In this document: one piece after another, positions 1 through 64,000 of the stretch
How positions within the stretch are numbered: position 1 is the stretch's first letter
How the letters are laid out: the number at the start of each line of letters is the position of its first letter
Assembly: GCA_963981525.1 (NCBI GenBank)
Contig: CAXCDZ010000001.1
Location: forward strand, 11,217 to 75,216
Source: an uncultured bacterium
GTDB lineage: Bacteria; Patescibacteriota; Microgenomatia; UBA1400; UBA12108
Direction: 5' to 3'
DNA: 64,000 nt
Made by a program: the position numbers and the translations under genes
The notes under the pieces: model-generated
Told to the model about the DNA's origin: nothing
What the model saw: the letters and a program-made list of their open reading frames with translations, nothing else
Databases searched by the model: none

Positions 1-132
1 GTAAGTGAAGTGGAATGGGGAGTCAAGGGTAAGGAGAGCGCGGGCCAATTCTTCTGTGTAGCGGGCTACTCCGTGGCCAGAATAAACCATCTGTGAGACG
101 TCGAGGGCTACTTTGTGTTTATTATTTTTCAT
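1..132 (-). CDS. Glycosyltransferase family 4 (GT1-like), N-terminal fragment; 3' end lies beyond the window
   Basis: Reverse-complement of 1..132 translates to MKNNKHKVALDVSQMVYSGHGVARYTEELARALL..., a typical GT4 N-terminus (KIALD...GGxxRY..EL..AL). ATG at 130-132. Overlaps the stop of the upstream gene by ~10 bp. Confidence 0.5.
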   Translation of the reverse strand, partial: MKNNKHKVALDVSQMVYSGHGVARYTEELARALLTLDSPFHFTY

Positions 133-1438
133 AGATAGAGAGAGCAAGTCCAGAATAGGTCTGCTCTGAAACTAGATTATAGCCTTGTTCAGCCAGATTC
201 GCACGACCCTGGAGAGATGTGTCAAAGATATCCTCGACATATTTGATGTAAAAAACCCGATCAGTAGTAAGAAGTTCTTGGTTTTTGAGCTCAGTGAGGG
301 GGAGATGAAGGTTGTAATATCTTAGCGGGGCGTTTTGAGCCAGACTGGGGAGAGCGACGATCCCATCTTGACTGTTGAGATAGCTAGTGAGTGAGCGCCA
401 GTCTTCGTGATGAAAAGCAGGACTCAGATAAAAAATTCCGACAAAGACTAGGTTAAGGACGACCATAAGAACAGTCACGGTGCGAGGTAGCTTGGAGAGC
501 CCGAGCGCAAGAAGTGTGAGAAGGAGTGGAACTAAGAACAAGAGGCGAAAGTATGAATAGATTGGGACAACAAGAGAGATAAGTGAGGCGAATAGGACAG
601 TACCGATAATGCTTACGGTGAGGAGAGTATACTTACCCTTAACTCTAGTGAGAATGTGAGAGTGCAAGGCAGCAATGAGTGCAATAATGCCTGCGTAGAG
701 ATATTTGTTAGTGAATGAGATTCTCCCTATTACTGCCTTAACCCAAGTGAGAGCAATTGCCTTGCCACTAATCCCACCGACTACCCTACCCCACTCTGGA
801 GAGTGGCTCATGGTGGAGAGCCCGATTCCGATCGAGTCAATTAAAGAGGGAAGCCAAGGAATAAGGGATAAAAAGGTCAGGAAGGCGAGGCGGGTGAGCT
901 GCCATTTTTTTTGAGATACCACGTATGCTAACTGGAAAAAGATGATGATCCAAGCGAGATAGGAACTCCACAACGCAAACATTGTGGAGAGCATATAGCA
1001 TATTGCTAATAGCTTATGGCGTTTTTGAGATACAAGAAGGGAAAGTAAGTAATAGAAACTGGCCGTGACAAAAAATGTGGTCATCATGTAAGTGCGTCCT
1101 TCGGCAGAGTAGTAGATCAAGAGTGGATTGGTTGCTAGTAGTAAGCCTGCGATAGTACCAGCTTTCTTATTTAGAGCTGAAGCCAGTTTTCTACCAAAGT
1201 AAACTGTACCAAGACCTGCTAAGAGAGATGGTGTGCGGAGGGCAAACTCAGAGAATCCTACCAGAGAGGTCCAGGCCGAGAGAATGAGGTGATAAATGGG
1301 AGGCTGGAAGTCAGAGAGGGCGTAGGTGAGAAGCGGACCCATCTTACCCATCAGAGCGAGGGCTTGGATACTCTCGTCGAGCCAGAGTGAGCTAGTCATA
1401 ATGGGAAGGCGGAGAATGAGGGCTAAAAGATAAATCAT
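122..1438 (-). CDS. GT-C fold glycosyltransferase, ArnT/PMT_2 family (GT39/GT83-like) polytopic membrane protein
   Basis: ORF track 122..1510. Contains the 'WLDESIQALAL...FQPPIYHLIL' DE-loop motif characteristic of ArnT/PMT_2. Many TM helices. Start likely at internal Met (MIYLLALIL, ~1438) to avoid a 65-bp overlap with the upstream methyltransferase. Confidence 0.7.
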   Translation of the reverse strand: MIYLLALILRLPIMTSSLWLDESIQALALMGKMGPLLTYALSDFQPPIYHLILSAWTSLVGFSEFALRTPSLLAGLGTVYFGRKLASALNKKAGTIAGLLLATNPLLIYYSAEGRTYMMTTFFVTASFYYLLSLLVSQKRHKLLAICYMLSTMFALWSSYLAWIIIFFQLAYVVSQKKWQLTRLAFLTFLSLIPWLPSLIDSIGIGLSTMSHSPEWGRVVGGISGKAIALTWVKAVIGRISFTNKYLYAGIIALIAALHSHILTRVKGKYTLLTVSIIGTVLFASLISLVVPIYSYFRLLFLVPLLLTLLALGLSKLPRTVTVLMVVLNLVFVGIFYLSPAFHHEDWRSLTSYLNSQDGIVALPSLAQNAPLRYYNLHLPLTELKNQELLTTDRVFYIKYVEDIFDTSLQGRANLAEQGYNLVSEQTYSGLALSIYEK

Positions 1439-1445
1439 ATTGTTT

Positions 1446-2231
1446 CTACAAACCTGAATCAAACCTGGAAGATGATTTTGGTTTTGCCCGAGTATTCTCG
1501 AAGACCCCAAAAATATGAGCTGAGAAAACTATCGGAGAGAAAGTGATGAATGGGATAGAGAAGAGTGCGAAGAGATCAAAAACTATCTTCTTGAGTCCAG
1601 TCCTAAAAGCATAGTTATCGAGCCTACCACCCTTGAGCTCGACTACTTTGTAGTGAAGGATGTTGGCGATCTTGCGTGCCTGGTGGAAAGTAAATTGATA
1701 AGTATGCCCCCAGGGCCCAAAAGCAGTAGAGACAAATAATTTTGAGGGAAAAAAGGTCAAGAGAATACCATTGAGGAACCAACCGGCGTTAGGAAAAGAA
1801 AAAATAATCTTGCCCTTGGGAGATAATAATGGTTTGAGATCATATAGAAGAGTCTGAGGAGAAAAAAGATGTTCGAGGACATCCGAGAGAACGATGATGT
1901 CAAATTTGTTATCAAAAGGAATGGGCTCTCTCTCCACATCGCAAGCCTGGTACTGGATCTTGCTGCCAACAAAAGATTGCTTGGATCTCTCCTGGATGTC
2001 AAGTCCATAGAGATTGTGATACCCTTCTTCCTCTAGCTGAAAAAGGATCTTGCCGTCTGAACAACCGATATCAAGAATAGTGGAGTCAGGTTGGGCATGT
2101 TCTCTAATCATATCTAAAACGATGCGGTGTTTGTTGATCATGCCGAGTCCATCTGTATCGTTATCTGAAAAAGCAGAGACTTGATTATCAATAAACTGTT
2201 TTTTGATGCTGGGAGAGGACTTATGACTCAT
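1446..2231 (-). CDS. Class I SAM-dependent methyltransferase
   Basis: Motif I 'ILDIGCSDGKILFQLEE' (DxGxGxG). Post-I acidic residue 'LYGLDIQE'. 'IIVLSDVLEHL' motif II. Confidence 0.75.
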   Translation of the reverse strand: MSHKSSPSIKKQFIDNQVSAFSDNDTDGLGMINKHRIVLDMIREHAQPDSTILDIGCSDGKILFQLEEEGYHNLYGLDIQERSKQSFVGSKIQYQACDVEREPIPFDNKFDIIVLSDVLEHLFSPQTLLYDLKPLLSPKGKIIFSFPNAGWFLNGILLTFFPSKLFVSTAFGPWGHTYQFTFHQARKIANILHYKVVELKGGRLDNYAFRTGLKKIVFDLFALFSIPFITFSPIVFSAHIFGVFENTRAKPKSSSRFDSGL

Positions 2232-3082
2232 TTGCTAAGTTTACCACTTATTAACATTTCCAAGATCCCGAAAACACGACCATAGTCATAGATTATTTTG
2301 AACGCGAGATACTGGGGGTTGAGGCGAGTAATGGACCTAAACATACCCACCATAATCGAGATGGGGAGAGTGGAGCGCAGGACTGCGTAGAGCGCGCCAA
2401 ATAGACCTAGTTTGTAAGGACGTTTGGCTGCCCATTTGGCCTGATAGTAAATCTTTTTGTAAGAATCGGGATTGTGGTGATAACAGAGTGCGTGAGTCGC
2501 AAGAGGCCTCTTGCCGAGCTTGTGGAAAAGACTCCAGGTATCGGTGTAGCCAATGTTGTCAAAACCCCCCACCCCCTCAAACTCGCTCCGGAGAATAGCC
2601 CGGTAATCGGTGCCCCATTTTGGTGGGTTCTTGGGGAATCTAGACTGATCCTCCCACCCTTCCTCGATATTCCAGCAACGTGCAAGAGGATTATCCCAGT
2701 TGGCAACTTGCTCGAGAGTAGTGTAGGTGCCGATTGCATCTCCTTTCTTGATAGGAGTAATGAGATCGCGAACATAGTCGGGACCGAACTCCATATCAGC
2801 ATCAACGAAGAGAAGAATATCAGAACTCGCGTACTCGGCGCCGAGGTTGCGGGCGATGGCTGGACCCTGATGATCTTGCTTAAGCAGCATGATCTTGTCG
2901 GAGTAGTTAGTAAGAAGATCTAGGGAGTTATCGGTAGAGCCGTCGTCAACCACGATCAGTTGGATTGGAAGGCTTTGGGTGAGAAGTGAGTCGAGCGCGG
3001 CGGGCAAAGTATGTGCGCTGTTGTAGGTCGCAAGAACTAAGGAAGCGACTGGCTTAGATGAGGGCATGGAGCTCCTTCTCAA
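2228..3082 (-). CDS. Glycosyltransferase family 2 (GT-A)
   Basis: 'ASLVLATYNSAHTLPAALDSLLTQS...LIVVDDGSTDNS' and a 'VDAD' DxD-region. Typical GT2 N-terminal domain. Confidence 0.8.
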   Translation of the reverse strand: MRRSSMPSSKPVASLVLATYNSAHTLPAALDSLLTQSLPIQLIVVDDGSTDNSLDLLTNYSDKIMLLKQDHQGPAIARNLGAEYASSDILLFVDADMEFGPDYVRDLITPIKKGDAIGTYTTLEQVANWDNPLARCWNIEEGWEDQSRFPKNPPKWGTDYRAILRSEFEGVGGFDNIGYTDTWSLFHKLGKRPLATHALCYHHNPDSYKKIYYQAKWAAKRPYKLGLFGALYAVLRSTLPISIMVGMFRSITRLNPQYLAFKIIYDYGRVFGILEMLISGKLSK

Positions 3083-4121: not shown

Positions 4122-4921
4122 AAGAACTTTCTTTTTAAGTGTTTTACCGGAGTAATGAGAGAGGCCAAGAGCTCATAAGTGAAGGAGCGTTTGATAGATG
4201 GGTCAGGGATAATATTGGGCCGAGGGAGGGAGAAAATCTCGGGGAGAGGTGTGGTAATCGGGAGCCCTTTCTCGACTTTGTATTTGTGACGGTGAAGCAC
4301 ACTCTTAAGATTGGCACCAGCACTAGAACGCTTGAGATACATGGCGTGGTGAAGATAGTTGTTGGTAATATACCAATTCTGAGGAGCGCGCTCACGCGTA
4401 CTAACACCATCTTGGTCAAAAAACCCTTCGAGTGGATAATCACCTTGGTAGTGGAGACCCTGGATCTTATCCCTGTTAACTAGGCGAGTCACGAGATGCC
4501 CATGCTGCCCGAACAGACTATACTCGCCAATAGAATCTTGCTGATGATGATAAATGTCACCAAGGAGGTCGTAGCGCCTGACTACTATTCCCTCGAATTT
4601 ATCAGAATTGACTTGCCCAACAATCTCTTTGGCTAGGTGAGTGGAGTAGATCTCGTCACCATCGATTAGCCAAATCCAGGGGTTCTTGGACTCCTGAATC
4701 TGAGCTTGCCTAACTGCAGTGAGCTCCTTGGGAGTAGAGATCTTGATGGTAGTCAGGTTAATCTTGGGATCCTTAATGCTCCTGATAATCTCAAGTGTGT
4801 GGTCGGTGCTGCCAGTATCCGTAATTAGCAATGTATCAACGTAGGGCAAAATAGAGTTAATAGCAAACCAGATCCACTGATCCTCATTTTTGACCACCAT
4901 GTGGGCGGCAATAGAGGTCAC
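4118..4921 (-). CDS. Glycosyltransferase family 2-like protein
   Basis: 'IAAHMVVKNEDQWIWFAINSILPYVDTLLITDTGSTDHT' and 'LIDGDE'. GT2-like N-terminal fold. Confidence 0.6.
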   Translation of the reverse strand: MTSIAAHMVVKNEDQWIWFAINSILPYVDTLLITDTGSTDHTLEIIRSIKDPKINLTTIKISTPKELTAVRQAQIQESKNPWIWLIDGDEIYSTHLAKEIVGQVNSDKFEGIVVRRYDLLGDIYHHQQDSIGEYSLFGQHGHLVTRLVNRDKIQGLHYQGDYPLEGFFDQDGVSTRERAPQNWYITNNYLHHAMYLKRSSAGANLKSVLHRHKYKVEKGLPITTPLPEIFSLPRPNIIPDPSIKRSFTYELLASLITPVKHLKRKFL

Positions 4922-5598
4922 TTCTTGGTTGCCTCGACAATCATAATCATGCCAAAGAGTGCTGGAGCAAGCTTGAGAAAAGGAATATCAAGGCGTCGTC
5001 TAGAAACTGGCAGGAATGATGTTTCTGTGAATCCTGTGGCATCTAGGAGTTGCTTGAGAATGTGGCGGTTAAAGAAACGAATGTGCGTCCACTCCCATGG
5101 CTTGTTATCCTCACCCTCTGTTTTTGGGAGCGATCCTGTGAGAAGAGTGTATAGACGATACCTCCAGTATCCTTGGTTGGGAGTAGAGATAATAACTCTC
5201 CCGCTTGGCTTAAGAACTCGGTATATCTCATGGAGAATATCGGCGGGAGTAAAGACATGCTCAATATTATCTCCCCAGAAGACAGTGTCAAAAGATTTAT
5301 CCTTAAAAGGCAATTTCTTCTCTACAGAACCAACGACTCCTTTGACTCCACGCTTTTTGGCATTTGCAATCGCAGTTTCGGAGATGTCCAGCGCTGTAAC
5401 CTGGCATTGATAATTATCTTGGAGGTAGCTCCCGACGATAGAGTTGCCGCTTGCAAGATCTAGAACCTTTTCTTTTCTCCTGAATAATTTGGGTAGTACC
5501 CAATTTCGTTCATACTGATCAAAAAGTTCGCCACCTGCACGAAGAGTTCGCTTAACCCACTGCTTTTCATATTTTTCGGAAATTTGGTTTTTTGTCAT
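4918..5598 (-). CDS. Class I SAM-dependent methyltransferase
   Basis: 'KVLDLASGNSIVGSYL' motif I. 'VFWGDNIEHV' and 'LKPSGRVIIS' (methyltransf_11/23-like). Confidence 0.7.
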   Translation of the reverse strand: MTKNQISEKYEKQWVKRTLRAGGELFDQYERNWVLPKLFRRKEKVLDLASGNSIVGSYLQDNYQCQVTALDISETAIANAKKRGVKGVVGSVEKKLPFKDKSFDTVFWGDNIEHVFTPADILHEIYRVLKPSGRVIISTPNQGYWRYRLYTLLTGSLPKTEGEDNKPWEWTHIRFFNRHILKQLLDATGFTETSFLPVSRRRLDIPFLKLAPALFGMIMIVEATKK

Positions 5599-5611
5599 AG
5601 GCTCATTATAT

Positions 5612-6943
5612 TCAATTATCGTGAGATTTTCTGTAGAGAAAAGTTTGTGAGTCTATCTCCTCGTGGAGGACGTAGTAGTTATCTATGTAGTTAAGAATAA
5701 GTTGGGGAGCTGAGTTGCTACCTAAAAGAATATATACTGGCTGAGAATCAAGTAGCTTGGAGACTGTTAACTCCTGCACCCCGGGATAGTCATAATAGAG
5801 AGGAGTGCTGGGATAGATAAAGTCTATATTGGGATACTTGTTGATCAGGTAGTACCAATGATCCCAGGAGTTGGTGGTAAAAATCGTCTCATCTCCTACA
5901 ATGTTTGTAATGTGCTGTGACTCAGAAATAATTGTCTGCTCGATGAATCTAGGAGGAAGGGCGCGGTAGTCATGATAATATTCCAAAAACACTAGTAGGC
6001 TAGTTATGGAGAGAATGGTAATAATTAGGCGCCTGCAAGTGATGATCTTGATATTAGTTAGTAGTAAAAATAACAGGAGTAAAAGGAAGTTGAGCGATGG
6101 CAAGACATGAAAAAGCTCGAACCTAGGCCAGATTCCAATTAGAGAAAATAGATACCACACCATTAACTCTCGATGCTGACGTGGGATCTTGGAAGATTTT
6201 TGCCTCTGGGCAAAGAATGAGACTGCTAACATAACGATGGGAAGCAGAAAGAGAATAAGTTGGTTGAGCTGGGGTAGTTGTCTCTGGCCAGAATGACTAG
6301 CCATATGCTGAATTGGAAATAATAGGTTTTGCTGGACTGCAGTTAACCAACTCTCTGTTGGGATCATTAGTAGGTATCCAGCAATAGCCAAGAAACCACT
6401 AAGGAGTATAAATCGAAGAAATTGTCTTGAGCTATTTAGTGAGTACATTATGGGAATTAGCATAACTACTGCAGTTTGTTTGGTAAGAATCGCGAAAGAG
6501 AAGAAGATTGAGGCAAGTAGTAGTCGACCACGATAGATCATACTGTAGGTAATAAACAACAAGGGTGTTAAGAGGTGGTCAAACCACAAGCCATTTGCTT
6601 CGTACCTAATCTGCCAGATGATGAGAAGAAAGGAGACAAATATAAGCAACTTGAGTGAAGAGTGCCTTTTGCGAAGCTCTGTGACGAATAGTGACAAATT
6701 GAACAGTAGCACTGCTGTTGTAATTAACTGAAGCATAGTCACGTCCCAATGATTTGAGGAAACTAAAGAAAGAATTGAAAGCAAGAGAGGTGGGTAGACA
6801 ACAAAGATGTTGGAATAGTATGCAAATCCACCTTGGTGCAGATATGGCCAAACTAACATCTCTGGCCAAGCCGTAAATTGAGTGCTATATAGCAAAACCG
6901 TGAAGATGGCCGACAATAATATTAGGGGCTTGTGCCTTGTCAT
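5612..6943 (-). CDS. Uncharacterised polytopic membrane protein (possible GT-C-like transferase or polymerase)
   Basis: ~10 predicted hydrophobic helices and a C-terminal soluble domain. No recognisable catalytic motif. Confidence 0.4.
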   Translation of the reverse strand: MTRHKPLILLSAIFTVLLYSTQFTAWPEMLVWPYLHQGGFAYYSNIFVVYPPLLLSILSLVSSNHWDVTMLQLITTAVLLFNLSLFVTELRKRHSSLKLLIFVSFLLIIWQIRYEANGLWFDHLLTPLLFITYSMIYRGRLLLASIFFSFAILTKQTAVVMLIPIMYSLNSSRQFLRFILLSGFLAIAGYLLMIPTESWLTAVQQNLLFPIQHMASHSGQRQLPQLNQLILFLLPIVMLAVSFFAQRQKSSKIPRQHRELMVWYLFSLIGIWPRFELFHVLPSLNFLLLLLFLLLTNIKIITCRRLIITILSITSLLVFLEYYHDYRALPPRFIEQTIISESQHITNIVGDETIFTTNSWDHWYYLINKYPNIDFIYPSTPLYYDYPGVQELTVSKLLDSQPVYILLGSNSAPQLILNYIDNYYVLHEEIDSQTFLYRKSHDN

Positions 6944-8229
6944 TAACTTTTTGATGGAGAAAAGTGTTCTTGATATGATTTCTTCGCAAAGAGAAGGGTG
7001 AAGATGAGAATGGCTAGTCTAGTGATAATCCTGGCATAACCTGCCCCAATAAGACCAAATGGTGGGATCAAAACTACATCAGAAATAAGGAGGACTATGG
7101 TACTCAAGATACCCGAGATTGCAAAATAGGTTGGCTTGTTGAATAGGTAAAACAATGCAACAAAAGGAGAAGTTGCAGTAAGAAGAGCGGTCGAAATGAA
7201 AAGTAGGTTCAGAGGGGCAACGGCATCAAGATATTCTAGTCCGACAGTGTAATAGATGGCGGGGTAGCTCAATAAGGTCAGGAGCATAATTCCAACCAGA
7301 GAAATTACCCCAATAAGGTAAGCTTTTTTTAGATATGCTTGTAAGTGATGCTTACTTTTGTAGGAGGCAACTCGCACGTTGAGAACTGAACCGAGAGACC
7401 AACCAATTAGGCTAGCGACTGTAGCGATCCTCACGGCAGCTGACCAGAGACCTGTTTCATGACTTGAAAGATAGTTCTGCACTATGATGACGTCGATATT
7501 GTCGGCAATGGTAGCTGAGATAATTGCGATGCTGGTCCATTTGGCAACGGAGATAATTTTTTGCGCTCTATTCTTATCTAGAACGGGTTTGAAATATGTT
7601 AGTGGTAACTTGACAAACCCGGCAATTCCTCCTGCAAGTGGCATCAAGAGATAGACGAGAGTTAGAGGGCCTAGAGCTATGCCAACTGACATAAAAATAA
7701 CTGCATAAAGAAACTTGCCAATTGATTGGATAAAATTGGTCAGGACTGAGTAAGTGAAAAGCCCTCTTCCCTGCAGGATCACGTTAATATATTCGTAAAA
7801 TATCACTGCACCTGAGAGCAAAAATACCCACCTTACCAGATAGTAGTACTGTTCAAGCTGAAGAACTCTGATACCTATCCATTTGCTGGCAATTATCCCA
7901 AATACCATAAGTGCCACAGTCAAAGCTAGTTTGAGGACAAGGCCTGTTTGAATCGTTTCTTTGACAAAGGTGGGATTATCTTTGTGTTGAGATATTTCTC
8001 TCTGAACAGCGATGTTAACTCCAAAGTCACCAACTTTTGAGAGAATAAGTAATAAAGAGAATAGAACTGAGAATATTCCGAACATTTCTGGCCCGAGGGA
8101 GCGAGAGAAGATAATCATTGCGACCGCAGAAATAGCAGTGGCGGTTATGTTACCTGCCATCATCATCGTGGCTGAGCGAACCCCTTCAGATCTAATAGTT
8201 TGGAGTGCAAGTTTTCGGATTCTATCCAT
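6943..8229 (-). CDS. Wzx-like oligo/polysaccharide flippase (MOP superfamily)
   Basis: N-terminus 'LALQTIRSEGVRSATMMMAGNITATAISAVAMIIFSRSLGPEMFGIFSV' is typical of polysaccharide biosynthesis protein (Wzx). 12-14 TM. Confidence 0.75.
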   Translation of the reverse strand: MDRIRKLALQTIRSEGVRSATMMMAGNITATAISAVAMIIFSRSLGPEMFGIFSVLFSLLLILSKVGDFGVNIAVQREISQHKDNPTFVKETIQTGLVLKLALTVALMVFGIIASKWIGIRVLQLEQYYYLVRWVFLLSGAVIFYEYINVILQGRGLFTYSVLTNFIQSIGKFLYAVIFMSVGIALGPLTLVYLLMPLAGGIAGFVKLPLTYFKPVLDKNRAQKIISVAKWTSIAIISATIADNIDVIIVQNYLSSHETGLWSAAVRIATVASLIGWSLGSVLNVRVASYKSKHHLQAYLKKAYLIGVISLVGIMLLTLLSYPAIYYTVGLEYLDAVAPLNLLFISTALLTATSPFVALFYLFNKPTYFAISGILSTIVLLISDVVLIPPFGLIGAGYARIITRLAILIFTLLFAKKSYQEHFSPSKS

Positions 8230-8250: not shown

Positions 8251-8868
8251 TTACTTGAACTGGGTCAAGAATCCCCAGATCCTCTCCCACATAGAAGGTT
8301 CGGCGCTGGCTGGGACAGAGCTCGGGGTAACGTCGAGCGGGTTGTAGGCCAGAACATCCTCGACAGAGAGAGTGTTGTTAAGATTGTGATAGATCCCGAT
8401 CACGACAACTGGCTTCTCGACCAGGCGATGAGATGAGTCAAAATCAGTGTCATACTCCAACATATAGACGTCACTGGTGGGGAGAACAAGAATGTCATGA
8501 GATTCGCTAGCAACTCTTACTTCGTGGATCATGCCGAGCTTGCTCATGGGCTGGTTGACTCCCCTGCCCTGCCAGAGTCTGTATCCTAGATAGATCACGA
8601 GCGGGAGAACTAGGAGAGGAATCGTGAACTTGATATTGATGACAGTGTTTTGGCTTTTCCAGATCCTCTTGAGTGCGAGCCACAGACGACCAATGGGATT
8701 ATTGATCCGCAGGTTTACGTCCAGTAAGGGATCTTCTAGGTTCTCAGATTTGGTGACGTCAACGTCGATTGCGTGTACTCCATTGATTGAGACAGATCTC
8801 CCCACCTTCTTCTTACTCTCGCTTGCGCGCTCTGCAATATCAACAATGTCTTTTGCCATTACTATCAA
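8251..8868 (-). CDS. Hypothetical protein with a single TM segment
   Basis: ORF only. One hydrophobic segment (IPLLVLPLVIYLGY). No motif recognised. Confidence 0.35.
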   Translation of the reverse strand: MIVMAKDIVDIAERASESKKKVGRSVSINGVHAIDVDVTKSENLEDPLLDVNLRINNPIGRLWLALKRIWKSQNTVINIKFTIPLLVLPLVIYLGYRLWQGRGVNQPMSKLGMIHEVRVASESHDILVLPTSDVYMLEYDTDFDSSHRLVEKPVVVIGIYHNLNNTLSVEDVLAYNPLDVTPSSVPASAEPSMWERIWGFLTQFK

Positions 8869-8877
8869 TGTACCAAA

Positions 8878-9828: not shown

Positions 9829-10094
9829 GTGAGTATATTATTAACTTCCAGCTCTTCTGCGTCGAACACACGTCCTTGTTCGATTTTTTCTAACGCACCT
9901 ATTGCGAATATGGCGATAAGCATAAGAGGTGTTAAATACTTTGCTTCTGTACCTGGGTCGACAACATCAAAAAGAGGCAATAATAATATTCCTGCTATAT
10001 ATGCACCCGTAAATTCACTCATGCGAGTTCCTACCCATGAACGTATTTCAAGCCGTTTTTTATGCTCTTCTAAACTATTCTCTTTGGTAAACAT
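9825..10094 (-). CDS. Small membrane protein (2 TM)
   Basis: 89-aa ORF with two hydrophobic helices. Start overlaps the stop of the upstream gene by 4 bp. Confidence 0.35.
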   Translation of the reverse strand: MFTKENSLEEHKKRLEIRSWVGTRMSEFTGAYIAGILLLPLFDVVDPGTEAKYLTPLMLIAIFAIGALEKIEQGRVFDAEELEVNNILT

Positions 10095-10425: not shown

Positions 10426-10447
10426 TATATCTGATTAGATATAAATG

Positions 10448-10768: not shown

Positions 10769-10822
10769 TCCTTTCTCACTAATCCATTACTAACTCCAGT
10801 ATTACCCATATACTACCCGAAG

Positions 10823-16040: not shown

Positions 16041-16121
16041 GGATCGTTACCTGTATATTCTTGAGCTAATAATCTATAATTAGAAATCATTATAGTATAG
16101 GATCTCTATGAAAGGGCGTAC

Positions 16122-24759: not shown

Positions 24760-24762
24760 GTT

Positions 24763-27014: not shown

Positions 27015-27015
27015 A

Positions 27016-28943
<1,928 letters not shown>

Positions 28944-35942: not shown

Positions 35943-35950
35943 TATATAGA

Positions 35951-55148: not shown

Positions 55149-55909
55149 AAATCGTATTTATGGAGAGTGTCGTTAACCCTGACGCGCATAATCTCAAAAA
55201 GCATCTCCAGAGATTCTTTGACAAAATTGCGAGACTTGCCGAGAGTGGTATCCTCGTTTTTCCAGATTACCCGCACTTCTTTGATACTTGCTCCGAGTTT
55301 TTTGGCGATGTGCAACAACTCAACGTCGTAGGCGGTGACTTTCCAGCCAGAAGCATTGTTAGCTCTCCCAAAAAGACGCATGTGTGAGAATATATCTCTT
55401 GCAAGACTAGTCTTGATTAACTTGAAGCCACACTGGGTATCTTTGATCTCGGGTAGCAATATCAAGCGACGAACAAGAAGGAAGACTATTGAGGCAAGCT
55501 GGCGAATAGGAGTGGTGTCAGTACGCTTGACTCCCCGAGAACCTATGACAACATCGTACCCTTCTGTAGTATGTGGAAGTAACTTGCTGAGCTCTTTGAT
55601 AGGAGTCGACTGGTCCATGTCAGTGAGGAGTACGTGCTCCCCCTTGGCCTTATTGATACCAGATCTCAGGGCATATGGCTTGCCTGCATGTTGGTTGTAC
55701 AGCAACTTGATCTCAGGGTTATTGGCAATGAAATCTTTGATTGCAAGAAGACTAGAGTCAGTTGAGCCGTCGTCAGAGATGATGACTTCGAATGTAAATT
55801 TTTGTTTTTTGAGATAATCCAAGATGTCTTGGAGTACTCCACGCTTGATGTTCTCTATTTCGTTGTAGTTGGGGATGAGGATGGTAACCTTTGGGGATTT
55901 GGTTTTCAT
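55145..55909 (-). CDS. GT2, DPM1/polyprenol-phosphate glycosyltransferase-like
   Basis: 'VTILIPNYNEIENIKRGVLQDILDYLKK...EVIISDDGSTDSS...YALRSGINKAKGEHVLLTDMDQSTP...VVIGSRGVKR'. Confidence 0.75.
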   Translation of the reverse strand: MKTKSPKVTILIPNYNEIENIKRGVLQDILDYLKKQKFTFEVIISDDGSTDSSLLAIKDFIANNPEIKLLYNQHAGKPYALRSGINKAKGEHVLLTDMDQSTPIKELSKLLPHTTEGYDVVIGSRGVKRTDTTPIRQLASIVFLLVRRLILLPEIKDTQCGFKLIKTSLARDIFSHMRLFGRANNASGWKVTAYDVELLHIAKKLGASIKEVRVIWKNEDTTLGKSRNFVKESLEMLFEIMRVRVNDTLHKYDL

Positions 55910-55910
55910 A

Positions 55911-58123: not shown

Positions 58124-58156
58124 CTAACAATTGTAACATTACTTGATTGGAATGGG

Positions 58157-59827
58157 TTATTGTTTTCTCATGTAGAGACTGATTGTTGTGGAGTCATAGA
58201 TGAGCTCAAACTGCACCGGAGAAGAGAGTGCGCGAACTGCATCTTCTGTGCCCCATTCTGTTTTGTAGATGTAGTAATAATCGGCGGGCACTGAAGTTAT
58301 ACTACCACCTTTGTACTTGTTGACTACATCTAGGCGAGGTTGATAACTAGAGTTGAGAACCATCAGTTGATCTGTGTCTAGATAATAAGTGTATTTCTCG
58401 GCAAGGGCAGGAATAACTGCGTTTCTGTGAACAGGGTTATTAACATAAACTATTCCCGGAGGAGCTTCCTTGAGCACACTGAGAGCTTCTAGCTCTTCGT
58501 TACCAATAATTTCTTGATCTGCCGTAAGAAAGCGGAGTTGCTCGAGATTGTTGGGAATCGTAAAGATAATAATCAAAAAAATGATTAACCAACTGCCTCG
58601 CCATTTTGAGTGAGCTAGATCAGACAACCACTCTACCAAAAGTATCCCTGAAAGCCAGGCTCCGTAATAAAGAAACTGCATGGTGTTGTACCAGCCGCCA
58701 TTTTGCACAAACAAGATCGGTGCCAGAACGGTCAATAAAATTGTAAATGAGATTGCTTGATAAAATGGAGACAATTTCTTCTTGAAGATTGAGGAGGCCA
58801 CATATATCCCCGCCAGAATGCGAGTCCCAAAATTGATAAGGAGAAATAGTCCGAGAGAGTATGCTTCGATTGCCCATAATCTGGGGGAGAAGCTAGTCGC
58901 ATTCTCATAGAGATGGTACCTGGCGAGCGTCAAGCTATGGTTGTAAAAGAGGAGGGAGTCGTCTATCAATAAGTGAGTCAGTGCAAGTGGTGCCCAACTA
59001 AATGGAATGCTAGAACCTGAGGAAACTCCATAAAAAACGAGCAGACCTAGAAAACTACCAGTGATTATCAATAATGCTTGAGTAAGAAAATCTCTCAATG
59101 CAAGCCTTTTCCCAACAAACTCTAGCAATTTGAAAATAGAAGTAAATAGGAGAGCTACAACTCCGCCATAGAACTTGAGACCAAAAAGAACGAAAAACAG
59201 AATTCCGAGGATGATGGATTGTCTTTTTTGATCCTTGCGGTTAATAAGCATGATGATCCAAAGGATGACTGAGAGCGAGAAGGCAAACTGAAGATTGAGA
59301 AACATAGTGGCAGGCTGAATGGAGGTTACAACTGGGAAGCCACGCAGAGACGAGTAGAAAAAAGTGCGATCCTGATAGAGGGTTGCGAGATAACTAAAGG
59401 AACTACCAAAATATAAGAAAAAGGCAAGAAGATTGGCTTTGAGAAGGTTGGATGTTCTAGTTTTAATAAAACGAAGAACGCTCCATATATATAAGAGTGC
59501 AGCAATAATTGGAAGAAGTTGGAAAAAGCTAAAGAAAGGTGAGATTCCTAGCCTGCTCAAAAGATGAAGGATATAATCCAAGAGAAAGTTGTAACTGGAG
59601 AGTGATTCGCCCGCCATAAGAGGATTCTGGAGCGGCCAACTCCCAAAACCAAGTTTTGCGAGACTGATATGCCAGAGAGAGTCATGCAGATGCCACTGAC
59701 CAATCTGAAGATTGCAGATCCCCGTTGTGCAATGCATAAAACCATTTGGAAGAATAAATGATAGAGAGAGAAACGCAAAGAAAAACGACTGAATAACTAA
59801 CCACTTATTGAGTCTAAGTTTCTTCAT
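58157..59827 (-). CDS. Uncharacterised polytopic membrane protein, 'C..C / HxHD-WH' family (paralog of 61025..62680)
   Basis: 'HCTTGICNLQIGQWHLHDSLWHISLA...GESLSSYNFLLDYIL', 'QNGGWYNTMQFLYYG'. ORF track start 60028 trimmed to 'MKKLRLNKWL' (ATG 59825-59827) so that it does not run through the divergent gene. Confidence 0.5.
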   Translation of the reverse strand: MKKLRLNKWLVIQSFFFAFLSLSFILPNGFMHCTTGICNLQIGQWHLHDSLWHISLAKLGFGSWPLQNPLMAGESLSSYNFLLDYILHLLSRLGISPFFSFFQLLPIIAALLYIWSVLRFIKTRTSNLLKANLLAFFLYFGSSFSYLATLYQDRTFFYSSLRGFPVVTSIQPATMFLNLQFAFSLSVILWIIMLINRKDQKRQSIILGILFFVLFGLKFYGGVVALLFTSIFKLLEFVGKRLALRDFLTQALLIITGSFLGLLVFYGVSSGSSIPFSWAPLALTHLLIDDSLLFYNHSLTLARYHLYENATSFSPRLWAIEAYSLGLFLLINFGTRILAGIYVASSIFKKKLSPFYQAISFTILLTVLAPILFVQNGGWYNTMQFLYYGAWLSGILLVEWLSDLAHSKWRGSWLIIFLIIIFTIPNNLEQLRFLTADQEIIGNEELEALSVLKEAPPGIVYVNNPVHRNAVIPALAEKYTYYLDTDQLMVLNSSYQPRLDVVNKYKGGSITSVPADYYYIYKTEWGTEDAVRALSSPVQFELIYDSTTISLYMRKQ

Positions 59828-59858
59828 AACGATATTAGTATAGCAGTCGATCGAGCAT

Positions 59859-61028
59859 ATGCAGTATGATATGGGTATGAGGAAAAATATTCTTGTAGCA
59901 ATTGCAATTGCTATCGTATCTCTAGTAGTGTTCTGGTCACCATTTCTTCTCAAGGCTGACAAACTCTGGGGAATTGAGTTAAAAGACCACTCGATGCAGA
60001 CGATTGTCGCTAATTTTGATGGAATCAACTTCTTGATAGTGGCAAAATCTCTCTACAATCAAGGAATCATTGAGACTGATTATCCGAGTATTTTGTCAGG
60101 GAGAGTGAACCTCTATTTCTCTGCCCATTACCCAGGATTCCCACTCATGATTAGAGCTTTTGATATCTTTCTCTCTGGACCAAATGCCCTTCTGGCTGCA
60201 ATCGCACTGAGCAATATCCTCCTTTCTGTTGCGCTCTATTACCTATATCAAAAGATTACCCCGAAAGGTAAGGGAGCGTTGTATCTGACAGCTTTGGCGT
60301 TATTTATCCCAGCTAGGATGCTCTCGATGCGGACAGTGGGTTCCAACGAAAGCCTATTCATCTTCTTTGTTCTAACTTCACTCTTGTTGTCATCTAACAA
60401 AAAATATTGGTTGTCGGGAATCGCTGGAGCTGGAGCCGTACTAACCAGAAGCCCAGGGATCTTACTTATGTTTGCTTATGCTGTTCCCCTATTAGCTAAT
60501 CTTAAGAAAAAAAATAAAATTGATTGGAAAAGCTACCTCCCATATTTATTGATCCCTCTTGCCCTAGTATCTCTATGGATTTTCTACGGACTCAGGTTCG
60601 GAGATTTCTTGGCTTACTTTAAAGTTGGTGGAAATATCAACCTCTATTTCCCCCCATTTATGACATTTGGCTCTAACTTTGACTGGATCTCTGGGATGTG
60701 GCTAGAGGATATTATCTATACATACCTATTTTACGGCGTGGGAATACTGCTTTTTTTTCAGCACCAGATAAAGAAGAATAAAAGCCTAGCAGTACTTGGA
60801 TATTTTGCGCTTATATACTACACGATGACCTTGTTTATAGTGCATCGCGATATTGCGCGCTACTCTCTACCAATTGCTCCTATTGTAATTGCGGGGTATG
60901 CTCCATTTATTCAGTCCAAGTATCTTAAGTACGCCTTAGTTGCTCTGATCGTCCCAATCTATCTTTATGCCTGGAACTTCATACTCAATAATGTGCAACC
61001 GGTTATGGACTGGTCAGCTTTCTTATGA
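59859..61028 (+). CDS. PIG-V/Gpi18-like (GT76-like) mannosyltransferase-family membrane protein (paralog of 35951..37075)
   Basis: 'AKSLYNQGIIETDYPSILSGRVNLYFSAHYPGFPLMIRAF' versus 'IARYGYQDTGTQAFFPVYPLMIRAL'. Multi-TM. Confidence 0.5.
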   Translation: MQYDMGMRKNILVAIAIAIVSLVVFWSPFLLKADKLWGIELKDHSMQTIVANFDGINFLIVAKSLYNQGIIETDYPSILSGRVNLYFSAHYPGFPLMIRAFDIFLSGPNALLAAIALSNILLSVALYYLYQKITPKGKGALYLTALALFIPARMLSMRTVGSNESLFIFFVLTSLLLSSNKKYWLSGIAGAGAVLTRSPGILLMFAYAVPLLANLKKKNKIDWKSYLPYLLIPLALVSLWIFYGLRFGDFLAYFKVGGNINLYFPPFMTFGSNFDWISGMWLEDIIYTYLFYGVGILLFFQHQIKKNKSLAVLGYFALIYYTMTLFIVHRDIARYSLPIAPIVIAGYAPFIQSKYLKYALVALIVPIYLYAWNFILNNVQPVMDWSAFL

Positions 61029-62680
61029 AGAGCAAAGTCCTGACAACTATATTAGTTGTAGCAGGACTGGTTGCGAGCTTGCTAGTCATATTCCCAAGTG
61101 GGAGAGAGTATTGTTATCAGGACCAGTGCGGAGTAATGTTCTGGGGAGCTCATGAGCATGATGCTATATGGCATCTAGCCGTATCTAACACCCTATTCTC
61201 TAATTTCCCATTCGAGATGCCAAATATGTCAGAGAGTATGATGAGTGGATACAATTATCTCTTAGATATTGTGATTGCGACTACCTCATTTGTTACCCGT
61301 ATCCCTGCCTCAAATTTATATTTCCAGATCATCCCGATATTATGGTTTGGTCTGTTTGTATGGTTAAGTAGCAAATTTGCCAAGCAATATCATAAGAGCA
61401 AATACTATCTACCCGCATTGCTATTTTTTAGTTTTTTTGGGAGCTCACTCGGCTATTTGATCACTCTCAAGAATGCTGGCTCTTTCTGGGGCTCAAGCTC
61501 TATCCTCTCTATGCAACCATTGCAGAACCTGCTTAACTTACAGTTTTCCCTATCCCTTTTACCATTCCTGGCAATCTTGATCGGACTGGTGAATAAGAGG
61601 AGGAGCGTCAAGGACTATGTTCTTTATGGAATATATGCATTCATAGCAATAGGACTAAAGCTCTATACGGGGGTTGGAATAGTGATGCTACTCATTGTGG
61701 ACTGGGTAATAAGAGCGATCCGCAGGAAAGACCCAATACTACTATCAACTCCTAAGCTGCTGATTACCGGACTATTCTCGATACTTGCTGTGATAATCTT
61801 TTATGCGCCATTTTCGCAATCAACTGGAGCTCCATTCTTACTTGATCCCATGGCTACAGTTAACCCCATCGTAGAGGACTCTAGCCTACTATATCTACCC
61901 AAGACTGCTGAGAGACTCTACTCTCTTAGAGGAGTCAAACTAGTAGTAATTGAGCTTTTTGTGCTCGGACTATTCCTAGTATTTAATTTTGGCTCCAGAA
62001 TATTTGCAGCGTTTGGGCTAGCAGGTAAACAAGAACCAAATGAGATCAGGGAAATAGTTGGCTTAACTGCTATTATCATGCTGATATTGTCTATACTCCT
62101 AACCCAGAGGGGGGTATGGTGGAACACCGTCCAGTTCTTGTATGTCTCCCTTTTCCTTTTTAATATTCTGGCAGCAGAGGGTCTGGTGAAAATATTTCAA
62201 TTACCAAAATTTGGAATAGTGCTAGGTGTCACCATCGTTCTTATTACTATCCCCACAAACATTGATGTTATGAGGTCGTTTTCTAACTTCCCAGGAAATA
62301 GCTATATCTCTAGTAATGAACTCTCGGCGCTAGAGTTTTTGAAAAAGCAAGATCCTGGGATAGTACTAACAGGCGGACTCCAATTACGCGGCTCAAAGAT
62401 AGCTTTACCCCCGCTTGAGGCAACCTACGACACAACATATGTCTCAGCCTACTCTCACAAACAAAGCTATCTCTCAGATCTTATCCAACTCCGACTAACA
62501 AATATTGATTATCATGAGAGACTAGAGATGGTAAGTAGATATGATTGCGAAGTCCTTGAAGATGTTAAGTATTTGTATGAGGTAAATGAAAGTCTATACG
62601 TATCAAATTACCAAGATTGTGGGAGAGGATTGGAAACAATCTATAGCAACGATACTGCATCAGTCTATCTTGTGAGATAA
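61025..62680 (+). CDS. Uncharacterised polytopic membrane protein, 'C..C / HxHD-WH' family (paralog of 58157..59827)
   Basis: 'YCYQDQCGVMFWGAHEHDAIWHLAVS...SESMMSGYNYLLDIVI', 'QRGVWWNTVQFLYVS'. Start overlaps the upstream stop (ATGA). Confidence 0.5.
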   Translation: MKSKVLTTILVVAGLVASLLVIFPSGREYCYQDQCGVMFWGAHEHDAIWHLAVSNTLFSNFPFEMPNMSESMMSGYNYLLDIVIATTSFVTRIPASNLYFQIIPILWFGLFVWLSSKFAKQYHKSKYYLPALLFFSFFGSSLGYLITLKNAGSFWGSSSILSMQPLQNLLNLQFSLSLLPFLAILIGLVNKRRSVKDYVLYGIYAFIAIGLKLYTGVGIVMLLIVDWVIRAIRRKDPILLSTPKLLITGLFSILAVIIFYAPFSQSTGAPFLLDPMATVNPIVEDSSLLYLPKTAERLYSLRGVKLVVIELFVLGLFLVFNFGSRIFAAFGLAGKQEPNEIREIVGLTAIIMLILSILLTQRGVWWNTVQFLYVSLFLFNILAAEGLVKIFQLPKFGIVLGVTIVLITIPTNIDVMRSFSNFPGNSYISSNELSALEFLKKQDPGIVLTGGLQLRGSKIALPPLEATYDTTYVSAYSHKQSYLSDLIQLRLTNIDYHERLEMVSRYDCEVLEDVKYLYEVNESLYVSNYQDCGRGLETIYSNDTASVYLVR

Positions 62681-62681
62681 A

Positions 62682-63857
62682 CTATTTTTTCTTCCAGATA
62701 ATCTTAGAGTAAGCAAAGAAGTTCCAGAACATGCCGACCAGAATACCGGTGACGGCAAACATCGTTCCGGTGTCAACTGCGAACTTGATAATCGGGAGAG
62801 TAAAGAGATTGTAGAAGCCGATATATCTCTCACCTAGAATAGCAATCACTTGCTGGATCAAGATCGAACCACCTGAGGCGAGGTTGAAGGCCACGAATTT
62901 TGCTGGTACTTGCTTAGCCTTGAGCTTGCGATCAGCGAAGGTCCAGAGATTGCTAAAAATAAAGTTACTGATAATGGCAGTCTCGATAGCGAGGAAGAAG
63001 GCCACCTGGAATGGCATTAGAGAGCGATAGATCTGCAAGAAGGCGATCTGGATGAGCGCACCGATACCTCCTGTGACTGCAAACTTAAAGATGCGATGGT
63101 TAAGTATTTTTTCGAGTCTGTTTTTCATGATGTACCTTAATGTATTAAATATATATTCTGAACCTAATTTGGAGTGACCGTGGGTACGATCAATAAAAAG
63201 AAATGGTACCTCGCCAATAGTGGCACCTACTTCGAGAGATTTTACTAAGAAGCCGATCTGCCAAGTGTACCCATCGAAGGCGCTGTGTGAGAGCGAGGGG
63301 AGAATGTGCTTAACGAGACTTGTTCTAATTGCGCGGTAGCCTGTTGTCCAGTCAGTGACCTTAAAGTTGAGCATTGTGGTACGAATAAATAGATTGCCAG
63401 CAAGTGACAGGAACTTGCGGTGTGGGGGCCAGTCCGCAGGTATTGCTCCACCTGGGATGTAGCGAGAACCAAGGACTAGGTCAGAACCAGACTCGATTAG
63501 TGCTAGCATTGGGACGGCCTTTGCCGGATTATGAGAGAGGTCTGCATCCATCTGGATGATAATCTCTGCACCCAACTTGTCGATTGCGTAGCGCATTCCT
63601 TTTTTATAGGCATGGCCGAGACCAGCTTTTTTGCGATTCTTGAGGAGCTTGATATAAGTCCTAGTCTTTGCGAGCTCTGTGATTGCCTTGCCAGTGCCGT
63701 CAGGACTCTGATCATCTACGAAAAGGATCTGGAGCTGATAATTGGTGAGGGATTTTTTGACTTTTGCTATAGCCTTTACCAAGGTTTTAATATTTCCCAC
63801 TTCGTTATAGGTGGGAATGATGATGACTACTTTTTGCTTAGATTTGTTTTTTTCCAT
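62682..63857 (-). CDS. GT2 polyprenol-phosphate glycosyltransferase (DPM1/ArnC/GtrB-like) fused to a C-terminal GtrA-like membrane domain
   Basis: '[25 protein letters not shown]...[12 protein letters not shown]...[16 protein letters not shown]...[13 protein letters not shown]', then the GtrA-like '[20 protein letters not shown]...' 4-TM tail. Confidence 0.8.
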
Positions 63858-64000
63858 ACGAGTTGATCATTAATTTTAGACCATCTCTAAGTGAGATAGC
63901 TGGTTTCCAGTTTAGCAGATCATTGGCTTTGGTGATATCGGGACGGCGGCGTGTAGGGTCATCAGCGAGTGCTTCGATTACCTCAACATTTAGCTTGTTG
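63838..64000 (-). CDS. NAD-dependent sugar-nucleotide decarboxylase/epimerase C-terminus (UDP-glucuronate decarboxylase UXS / ArnA-C-like); partial, N-terminus beyond window
   Basis: Minus-strand translation '...[53 protein letters not shown]' matches the UXS-family C-terminal 'DDPxxRxPDIxxAxxLLxWxPxxxLxxGL'. Stop overlaps the start of the GT2-GtrA gene by ~17 bp. Confidence 0.55.

Follow-up and report, generated by a model that had tools for sequence, protein, structure and literature searches.

Among the described systems closest to the locus treated here are the three-component systems GtrA/GtrB/GtrV (O-antigen modification), GacI/J/K/L (streptococcal group A carbohydrate) and CsbB/GtcA/YfhO (teichoic acids), the mechanism of which has been described (10.1101/180810). 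Each known module has one glycosyltransferase of the GT-C fold (GT-C hereafter) and decorates a polymer made elsewhere. The locus in question fills a 64-kb stretch of contig CAXCDZ010000001.1 (the window, meaning the whole 64,000 nucleotides analysed; GC ~0.43) with glycosyltransferase genes, named here by their lower coordinate. It resembles these modules in that GT2 polyprenyl-phosphate glycosyltransferase genes stand beside GT-C genes (16122, 62682 and 30048, the last with a DUF2304 gene), in its candidate flippases of Wzx or GtrA type and in its YfhO-like PTPS_related GT-Cs (38087, 50982). However, it contains at least 20 GT-Cs, 15 of them in a syntenic block, which outnumber the donor synthases ~4:1, and no separate backbone pathway (ABC transporter, rhamnan genes) is visible. 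The locus is probably a cell-surface glycoconjugate super-locus of at least 79 kb, in which lipid-linked primers would be extended outside the membrane by many GT-Cs.

By analogy, the design looks like three-component logic repeated, and overall it would be closest to the mycobacterial assembly lines for lipoarabinomannan (LAM) and arabinogalactan. In Corynebacteriales the lipomannan, LAM and arabinogalactan set consists of PimA/B (GT4), Ppm1 (a dolichol-phosphate-mannose synthase, DPMS) and the GT-Cs PimE, MptA/B/C, EmbA/B/C and AftA-D. There, as is proposed here, many non-redundant GT-Cs extend and branch a glycan outside the membrane using polyprenyl-phosphate-linked monosaccharides. The window also has a putative MptA_B member (54024), PIG-V-like genes (35951 and 59859), a DPMS homolog and GT4s. 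However, orthology is at the family level only, across different phyla with different envelopes, and no genes for decaprenyl-phospho-arabinose (UbiA, DprE) are seen in the locus. Whereas mycobacterial LAM and arabinogalactan genes are scattered over a 4-Mb genome, those discussed here form one array in a genome that is probably near 1 Mb. The lumenal GT-Cs of eukaryotes and archaea (ALG3/9/12/6/8/10, PIG-M/V/B/Z, PMT, STT3/AglB) likewise form a paralog series accompanied by a DPMS homolog. In those sets each paralog adds one sugar from a dolichol-phosphate-sugar, whereas here the series lies in a bacterial gene cluster.

The array is not bounded by the window, the stretch on which the sequence-only reading of this DNA was based. 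It runs at least 10 kb further past position 1, and past position 64000 it continues for ~4.6 kb and stops after genes for UDP-glucose dehydrogenase (Ugd) and epimerases, so that the whole locus measures at least 79 kb and has at least 21 GT-C genes. The order beyond position 1 is GT4, GT4, hexapeptide acetyltransferase, GT2, Wzy_C, a PMT/PMT_2 gene that passes both models, GT4, GT2, GT4. The same locus is present on a 66,795-bp JGI metagenome contig, a 91,649-bp ENA scaffold and many shorter contigs. Gene 40556 has 599 homologs. Identity to its homologs is 50-64%, the named ones coming from Woesebacteria, Microgenomates or Moraniibacteriota, and when GTDB species genomes were scanned, 23 related loci came up, mostly in metagenome-assembled genomes of Woesebacteria or Microgenomates. 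The likeness to expansions in Microgenomates and other bacteria from the candidate phyla radiation (CPR), which had been suggested earlier, is thereby borne out as regards the origin of the locus. On sequence grounds the source is an uncultured, ultra-small, Woesebacteria-like bacterium of the Microgenomates within the CPR/Patescibacteria.

In 23 of 23 related genomes the window genes from 50982 down to 30707 keep their order, as far as the 10-kb flanks reach: GT-C 50982, Wzx 49535, GT2, GT2, GT-C, GT2, GT4, GT-C, GT2, GT-C, GT2, GT-C, GT4, GT-C, GT-C, GT-C and GT-C 30707. A 964,590-bp contig from a different species, covered by two adjacent fetched loci, has the whole block 30707-63857 in collinear order, including its opposite-strand pair and the Ugd gene and three epimerase genes beyond it. 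This block holds 15 GT-C genes. Paralogs in the window are 23-33% identical, whereas orthologs at the same position are ~45-63% identical and score up to 869 bits. The duplications are therefore older than the species splits, and every copy has been retained. A core as conserved as 30707-63857 implies a conserved envelope glycan. From window positions 1-30 kb only the trio 30048/29714/28944 was seen in the flanks of GTDB relatives (locus L018 of the fetched loci used for comparison, which carry L-numbers), where it lies beside the core block. The 10-28 kb stretch has deoxy-sugar genes and a toxin-antitoxin pair on one border, and parts of it recur elsewhere as modules. On these comparisons 30707-63857 is a lineage-conserved core, and 1-30 kb, which is lower in GC, resembles a variable part of O-antigen type. 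In this view the conserved half would produce an envelope glycan common to the lineage, which the other half would diversify.

The window has 55 open reading frames (ORFs) of at least 100 amino acids (aa) and 2 small ones. Fifty-three of the 57 are on the minus strand, the exceptions being two gene pairs (16122-18586 and 59859-62680). Of the 48 junctions between minus-strand neighbours, 29 are overlaps, and at 44 the gap does not exceed 30 bp. Some long overlaps are artefacts of over-extended ORF starts. Judged by orthologs and by public gene calls, the mechanical ORFs 34164-36251, 35951-37246, 58157-60028 and 122-1510 should be shorter (34164-35942, 35951-37075, 58157-59827 and 122-1438), and with these four starts the apparent overlaps of 170-300 bp vanish. 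Families were assigned by a Pfam scan of every ORF at gathering thresholds, with NCBIfam, PDB, family hidden Markov model (HMM) and hhalign (HH) searches for extras. The tally is at least 20 proteins of GT-C fold, 13 GT2s, 4 GT4s, 2 Wzx-type MOP flippases, 3 methyltransferases, 2 epimerase/reductases of the short-chain dehydrogenase/reductase type, 1 DegT-family protein, 1 DUF2304 protein and a Gp49/HTH toxin-antitoxin pair. GT-C genes occupy 46% of the window's bases and all glycosyltransferases together 71%. In typical bacteria GT-C genes make up a small fraction of a percent of genes, and judged against this general expectation chance is not a plausible source of their density here. No tRNA was found in a scan of the window, nor any Rfam match.

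Much of this had been anticipated from sequence alone. The one-strand bias and tight packing (54 of 58 genes in the earlier count) were described correctly, as were the two Wzx flippases (6943-8229 and 49535-50998) and the two PIG-V-like genes (35951, 59859), and all coordinates then listed are those of real ORFs. The figure of about 12 GT2s was close, and that of 5 GT4s was one too high for the window. About 16 GT-Cs was too low a count, since Pfam, HMM, HH and family assignments together give at least 20. The genes of the window are as follows, each with the match that supports it.

122-1438, minus: GT-C (PMT_2), first loop LWLDES, 438 aa, the form called on public contigs; PF13231 36.7 bits (threshold 26.1)
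1446-2231, minus: S-adenosylmethionine (SAM)-dependent methyltransferase; Methyltransf_23, Methyltransf_11
2228-3082, minus: GT2; PF00535 95.9 bits
3054-4121, minus: GT4; Glycos_transf_1 92.6 bits
4118-4921, minus: GT2 of the 39697 subgroup; PF00535 49 bits and subgroup links
4918-5598, minus: SAM-dependent methyltransferase; Methyltransf_11 74 bits
5612-6943, minus: unclassified membrane protein, ~9 transmembrane (TM) helices, adjoining Wzx; no Pfam match, weak NCBIfam AZOBR_p60025, E 0.008
6943-8229, minus: Wzx-type MOP flippase; Polysacc_synt 70 bits
8251-8868 and 8878-9828, minus: two soluble proteins, function unassigned; no Pfam, NCBIfam or PDB match; a homolog of 8878 is present in the related glycan locus L034
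10132-10768, minus: HigB-like (Gp49) toxin and helix-turn-helix (HTH) antitoxin; PF05973, HTH_3/HTH_31
10823-11953, minus: membrane protein, possible GT-C; no Pfam match, hhalign 60% to the 20980 family
11929-13479, minus: GT-C (PMT_2-like, sub-threshold); PF13231 24.7 bits, E 3e-5
13489-15060, minus: GT-C (DUF2142), first loop FPDEQ; PF09913 95 bits, HH 88% to the 40556 family
15057-16040, minus: UDP-glucose 4-epimerase GalE; TIGR01179 376 bits (cutoff 262)
16122-17042, plus: GtrB/ArnC-type polyprenyl-phosphate glycosyltransferase, GT2 with C-terminal TM helices; PDB 5EKP
17039-18586, plus: membrane protein, ~9 TM helices, candidate GT-C partner; weak WsfD (NCBIfam), E 2.4e-4
18580-19764, minus: ColD/E1-like pyridoxal-phosphate sugar 3-dehydratase; DegT family 206 bits, PDB ColD/WbdK 2.8e-60
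19767-20993, minus: GT4; Glycos_transf_1 82 bits
20980-22317, minus: GT-C fold, A3 family without Pfam model, invariant WD...D...R
22320-23894, minus: A5-family membrane protein with C-terminal TPR; TPR matches, no Pfam family
23911-24759, minus: FkbM-family methyltransferase; PF05050 90 bits
24763-25716, minus: soluble protein without assignment, in a low-GC stretch; faint GT2-profile match, E 0.0065
25695-27083, minus: GT-C fold, A3 family, paralog of 20980; 28% identity, E 2e-22
27016-28008, minus: A5-family membrane protein, upstream partner of 25695
27987-28943, minus: GDP-L-fucose synthase-like epimerase/reductase (Fcl/ColC type); PDB GDP-fucose synthase 7e-66
28944-29717, minus: GT2; PF00535 98.8 bits
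29714-30046, minus: DUF2304 3-TM protein (GacJ/Rv3632-type activator); PF10066 46.8 bits
30048-30710, minus: GacI-type GT2, candidate polyprenyl-P-sugar synthase; PF00535 86.5 bits, kin of 57416 and 62682
30707-32347, minus: GT-C (PMT_2), DE at residues 33-34 invariant; PF13231 30.2 bits; orthologs score up to 869 bits; closes the conserved block
32350-34194, minus: GT-C (PMT_2), DE invariant among orthologs; PF13231 33.1 bits
34164-35942, minus: GT-C (PMT-like), corrected to 592 aa (orthologs 583-594 aa); PMT 18.8 bits (sub-threshold), HH 99.9% to 40556
35951-37075, minus: GT-C, PIG-V-like (Mannosyl_trans2), invariant FDG; PF04188 in 6 of 17 family members, best 3.6e-8
37047-38090, minus: GT4; Glycos_transf_1 115 bits
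38087-39697, minus: GT-C (PTPS_related, YfhO-like); PF10131 43 bits, HH 96% to the 43079 family
39697-40515, minus: GT2, soluble subgroup; PF00535 64 bits, PDB GmaR and SunS N-terminal only
40556-42172, minus: GT-C (PMT_2), top scorer, invariant NWDE (alignment A1); PF13231 63 bits
42160-43092, minus: GT2; PF00535 70.5 bits
43079-44437, minus: GT-C (divergent PMT_2-like), invariant D34 and D38; HH 97.4% to 40556, 99.6% to 55911
44434-45477, minus: GT4; Glycos_transf_1 67 bits
45474-46295, minus: divergent GT2, 39697 subgroup; PF00535 18 bits (sub-threshold), family HMM 1e-33 to 4e-40
46292-47743, minus: GT-C (PMT_2), DWDE loop; PF13231 33.2 bits
47691-48623 and 48620-49513, minus: two GT2s; PF00535 48 and 58 bits
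49535-50998, minus: Wzx-type MOP flippase of the conserved block; Polysacc_synt_3 199 bits, orthologs ~690 bits
50982-52514, minus: GT-C (PTPS_related); PF10131 52.7 bits
52518-54005, minus: GT-C (PMT_2 and PMT); PF13231 44.4 bits, PF02366 41.8 bits
54024-55148, minus: GT-C, MptA/MptB-family-like; PF26314 (precomputed, identical protein)
55145-55909, minus: GT2, DPMS/GtrB-related subgroup; PF00535 86.8 bits
55911-57419, minus: GT-C (PMT_2-like, sub-threshold), GDE loop; PF13231 23.5 bits, 43079-family HMM 116 bits
57416-58123, minus: GT2, DPMS/GacI-related subgroup; PF00535 98 bits
58157-59827, minus: GT-C fold, A4 family without Pfam model, 556 aa; 30% identity to 61025
59859-61028, plus: GT-C, PIG-V-like/AZOBR_p60025-like; NF046093 E 6e-12, HH 99% to 35951
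61025-62680, plus: GT-C fold, A4 family, invariant HD..WH loop
62682-63857, minus: DPMS-type polyprenyl-phosphate hexose synthase; PF00535 and PF04138, PDB 5MLZ 4.3e-41 over residues 8-346

HMM searches place six of the GT-C paralogs in PMT_2 (122, 30707, 32350, 40556, 46292 and 52518), which reach the gathering threshold of 26.1 bits, whereas the others come in through DUF2142, PTPS_related, sub-threshold scores, HH links and other family or fold assignments. Below the threshold are 11929 (24.7 bits) and 55911 (23.5 bits), and 34164 matches PMT alone at 18.8 bits. Family HMMs and hhalign firmly join 34164, 43079 and 55911 to the PMT_2 group and connect the PTPS_related and DUF2142 genes with it. 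The tie of 11929 is weak, consisting of its sub-threshold match and HH values of 26-34% to 46292, 32350 and 40556. The match of 54024 to NCBIfam MptA is also weak (E 1.6e-5, 24 bits against a cutoff of 439). A multi-pass membrane core with the GT-C fold was found, with ALG12, STT3B and Pmt4 as the best structural matches. PDB sequence searches with the A1 profile, 52518 and 54024 returned nothing, and there was no sequence-level match to the solved Pmt1, Pmt2 or Pmt4, so solved GT-C enzymes were reached by fold comparison only. Every ortholog family with intact N-termini has an invariant DE or D in the first loop (30707, 32350, 34164, 40556, 43079, 46292, 38087 and alignments A2, A3 and A4). 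By analogy this conserved acidic loop is assumed to face the outside of the membrane.

Donor synthases lie among these genes. The 16122 product matches Synechocystis GtrB (5EKP) over its full length at 1.6e-81 and ArnC at 3e-38, and its stop codon and the start of the 9-TM gene 17039 have 4 bp in common. The 62682 product is a full-length homolog of the Pyrococcus DPMS (4.3e-41), including the GtrA/DPMS membrane domain. The GT2 gene 30048 is directly followed by the DUF2304 gene 29714, which is the arrangement of GacI/GacJ and of PpgS/Rv3632, and a pair of this type also occurs in L018 and L035. A GacJ-type small protein stimulates polyprenyl-P-sugar synthesis by its GT2 partner, as in PpgS/Rv3632 (10.1101/180810). 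The donor logic of Ppm/ArnC type that had been suggested for the locus therefore stands, with 16122 of GtrB/ArnC type, 62682 of DPMS type and 30048 with 29714 of GacI/GacJ type. The GT2 subgroup of these synthases also includes 55145 and 57416. By coordinates, every DPMS/GtrB-like GT2 gene adjoins a GT-C or candidate GT-C gene: 30048 with 30707, 55145 with 54024 and 55911, 57416 with 55911 and 58157, 62682 with 61025, and 16122 with the candidate 17039. These adjoining GtrB-, DPMS- and GacI-type genes lend indirect support to the view that the GT-Cs of the locus would use polyprenyl-phosphate-linked donors. A second, soluble GT2 subgroup comprises 4118, 39697, 45474 and 48620. The one member searched against PDB, 39697, has GmaR and SunS as best matches over its N-terminal ~90 residues only; both are protein- or peptide-glycosylating enzymes. 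Gene 45474, which falls below the GT2 threshold, may be catalytically degenerate.

Two of the GT-C families have no Pfam model at all. These are A3 (20980, 25695) and A4 (58157, 61025), and on modelled structure both are confidently placed in the GT-C fold. The named A4 homologs in this analysis are all from Microgenomates. The 61025 family has a WWN inside its membrane-spanning helices in place of a WWDYG motif following the last TM helix, and for this reason it is not a demonstrated oligosaccharyltransferase. The idea that 20980 and 25695 supply the missing Wzy was ruled out, since the model matches GT-C enzymes only and two homologs carry PMT_2. The A5 family (22320, 27016) is a widespread membrane family with 655 relatives. 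It has a core of ~330 aa, a conserved C-terminal PPxxPW...YPR motif and in some members a TPR tail. Among 40 members there was no Pfam family, a weak DUF6798 match in 11 and no HH link to families of the locus. A5 was considered as EpsG/Wzy-like; this was dropped because no Pfam or HH link supported it, and the family is left unclassified. In five of five cases examined A5 is directly upstream of an A3 GT-C gene, and in four of the five a GT4 gene is next. The pairs are 27016-28008 with 25695-27083 and 22320-23894 with 20980-22317 in the window, 239-1297 with 1294-2676 and 8451-10001 with 10001-11311 in L034, and 9001-9999 with 10001-11347 in L035. A5 and A3 look like a conserved two-gene module, in which A5 is possibly a partner subunit of the A3 GT-C.

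Single-sequence HH comparison of 5612 and 17039 with all families of the locus gave no link. There is a DDHE motif after TM1 in 17039, and 5612, beside Wzx, could be GT-C-like or a polymerase. Nothing was found for 8251, 8878 and 24763 in PDB, NCBIfam or Pfam. GC content has its minimum of 0.33 at 24-26 kb, and the whole 10-28 kb stretch is lower in GC. The interval 24001-26000 contains 24763-25716, which encodes the unassigned soluble protein, and the beginning of a GT-C gene, and it may be a recent acquisition. The HigB-like (Gp49) toxin and HTH antitoxin genes (10132-10768) lie inside the array where the 1-10 kb block meets the 10.8-28 kb block of lower GC.

Sugar supply is represented by GalE (15057), by 18580, which is like the ColD/E1 3-dehydratases of 3,6-dideoxyhexose pathways, and by the GDP-fucose-synthase-like 27987; upstream of the window are Ugd and three epimerase/dehydratases. 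An aminoarabinose module of Arn type was considered for 15057-19764 (GalE, ArnC-like, GT-C, DegT) and ruled out because 18580 fits ColD/E1 3-dehydratases (2.8e-60), not ArnB, and 27987 is GDP-fucose-synthase-like. The likeness to ArnC/ArnT (GT83) consists in the ArnC match of 16122, a PMT_2 model that covers ArnT-like enzymes, and Ugd upstream of the window. However, ArnA, ArnD and ArnE/F were not found, and 18580 is ColD-like. The usual description of CPR bacteria is that they have neither an outer membrane nor lipid A.

Candidates for flippases are the two Wzx-type genes and the GtrA_DPMS_TM domain fused within 62682; a free-standing GtrA gene was not found. The 55 window ORFs gave no Pfam match to Bac_transf, Glycos_transf_4, Wzy_C or Wzz, in agreement with the earlier statement that the window has no priming phosphoglycosyltransferase. 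The 9 ORFs past position 1 and the precomputed annotations of the two flanks likewise yielded none. The companion statement, that Wzy and Wzz are missing, holds inside the window, and for Wzy only there. A gene of the Wzy_C family (O-antigen ligase/polymerase, 581 aa, L007:15482-17227), which scores 44.5 bits where 31.7 is the threshold, occupies the interval 4.0-5.8 kb past position 1 in the same co-directional array, which makes the absence of Wzy a window-edge effect. No Wzz was found in ~79 kb. The Wzy_C family includes O-oligosaccharyltransferases such as PglL. In having Wzx, many GT2s and GT4s, deoxy-sugar and modification enzymes and a Wzy_C gene just outside the window, the locus is like Wzx/Wzy loci. 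Unlike them, it is dominated by GT-Cs, no priming transferase or Wzz was found, and half of it is conserved and not hypervariable.

How might such a set of genes work? Gene families, folds, synteny and donor-synthase homologies are observed, and a scheme can be built on them. GalE, the ColD-like 3-dehydratase, the GDP-fucose-synthase-like reductase and, upstream, Ugd and the three epimerase/dehydratases would provide activated sugars. At the cytoplasmic face soluble GT2s and GT4s would then assemble a lipid-linked primer or short oligosaccharide, while 16122, 62682, 30048 with 29714 and the related 55145 and 57416 would load single sugars on polyprenyl phosphate. The flippases 6943 and 49535 and the GtrA-like domain of 62682 would carry the lipid-linked species across the membrane. 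On the outer face the GT-Cs, at least 20 old and individually conserved paralogs, would each make one sugar addition or branch, and three methyltransferases would modify the product. We infer the order of these steps, the sugars used and an acceptor that is a glycan or lipoglycan rather than protein. A more pointed version can be offered tentatively, namely that a ~38-kb conserved super-operon of 15 GT-C genes with variable add-ons builds an undescribed envelope glycopolymer mostly outside the membrane. On the same tentative footing, the locus, including A3, A4 and A5, might represent a clustered and independent equivalent of the machinery for LAM and arabinogalactan in mycobacteria.

What if the acceptors are proteins? 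The sequence-only reading preferred repeated O-glycosylation of protein or glycolipid; in the protein version, PMT_2- and PMT-like GT-Cs would attach sugars from polyprenyl-P-sugars directly to serine or threonine of secreted proteins (for example S-layer proteins, pilins or sortase substrates) and others would elongate them. Nothing found here favours protein acceptors, and we regard such a system as unlikely. It draws on the fact that 52518 and the PMT_2 gene outside the window pass both PMT and PMT_2, on the DPMS-type synthase, on GmaR and SunS as best PDB matches for GT2s of 39697 type, on the PglL-like members of the Wzy_C family and on the lack of any priming transferase among the genes found. 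However, 52518 is alone in the window above the PMT threshold (PF02366, 41.8 bits), the PMT_2 model also takes in lipid- and glycan-directed enzymes such as ArnT, and the GmaR and SunS matches are limited to the N-terminal 90 residues. The Pfam scan of all window ORFs found no MIR domain; this result is compatible with protein acceptors too, since Pmt enzymes of bacteria are devoid of that domain. The locus encodes no candidate acceptor protein, and 15 non-redundant GT-Cs in synteny with GT2s, GT4s and Wzx suit one large stepwise glycan better. A conventional Wzx/Wzy heteropolysaccharide, O-antigen- or capsule-like, would need a primer enzyme encoded elsewhere, a repeat unit made by GT2s and GT4s, Wzy_C as polymerase or ligase and GT-Cs as side-chain decorators of Gtr type. 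The earlier dismissal of this pathway was overstated, given two Wzx genes and a possible Wzy_C or ligase step, and the 17 cytoplasmic GT2/GT4 genes, the deoxy-sugar genes of O-antigen type, the hexapeptide acetyltransferase and the methyltransferases all agree with it. We nevertheless consider it improbable. GT-C genes exceed cytoplasmic glycosyltransferases in number and are the most conserved part, with 15 in the core, whereas decorating modules are normally few and variable; a phosphoglycosyltransferase and Wzz were not found in ~79 kb, and the Wzy_C gene is in the non-core part.

It is also possible to see the locus as several independent systems (for example one that glycosylates a teichoic-acid-like polymer, one for a lipoglycan and one for a variable surface polysaccharide) that became neighbours through compaction of a roughly 1-Mb genome. 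Two Wzx genes, the toxin-antitoxin pair and GC shifts within the locus, the two strand switches and sub-blocks that differ in conservation would be expected of such a patchwork, which we nonetheless judge quite unlikely. The 33-kb block 30707-63857 keeps its exact order across species that are ~50% identical at the amino-acid level, which speaks for a functional link within this block at the least, and junctions overlap throughout. Each of these alternatives suits the conserved, GT-C-dominated core less well than a glycoconjugate super-locus does. Even so, several observations weigh against the super-locus as proposed. A priming phosphoglycosyltransferase, an LCP-type ligase and an acceptor gene were not found in the window or its 10-kb extensions. 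The soluble GT2s of the core could be polyprenyl-P-sugar synthases or, on the GmaR/SunS matches at the N-terminus, protein-directed enzymes. The GT-C fold says nothing about the acceptor, 5612, 10823, 17039 and the A5 family are without classification, and the call of variable or conserved for window positions 1-28.9 kb is based on limited flank coverage.

The component families are all of known kinds. A search of the literature on CPR glycosylation gave no description of this type of locus, and the CPR reviews and protein-family survey searched do not mention glycosylation. Not found described there were how large the locus is, how its GT-Cs are clustered, that it is conserved in a genome of reduced size, the A5-A3 pair and the two GT-C families without Pfam models. 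CPR/Patescibacteria are a large, mostly uncultured share of bacterial diversity, and their envelope chemistry is almost undescribed. If the genome is near 1 Mb the locus takes up ~8% of it, and the findings suggest that a genome-reduced lineage spends a large share of its coding capacity on one surface glycan. The polymer, if it exists, may form the surface by which the bacteria attach to host cells, and the locus may help to identify the molecules of episymbiotic attachment. It supplies a defined, conserved gene set, made up of donor synthases whose close homologs have been solved and of 15 proposed GT-C steps in order, and it lends itself to comparison with the GT-C assembly lines of mycobacteria, which are targets of drugs.

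Some minor observations concern the related loci. A gene of ~500-520 aa without a Pfam match lies between the 40556 and 39697 orthologs in L010, L012, L013, L017, L028, L030 and L033 and is absent from the window; it may encode a further GT-C-like membrane protein. In the population variant L006 the 58157 ortholog is split into ORFs of 195 and 364 aa (10308-11979) and an epimerase upstream is cut down to 222 aa (5629-6297), which may reflect pseudogenisation or assembly error. A Bro-N gene is inserted between the MptA_B and PMT_2 orthologs on the 965-kb contig (L032 2333-3178); this domain is usually phage-derived. Syntenic contigs of Microgenomates type (L009, L012-L014, L016, L018, L019, L021, L022, L024, L026 and L030) carry GenBank titles, for example 'uncultured Pseudomonadales bacterium' or 'uncultured cyanobacterium', that are probably taxonomic mislabels.

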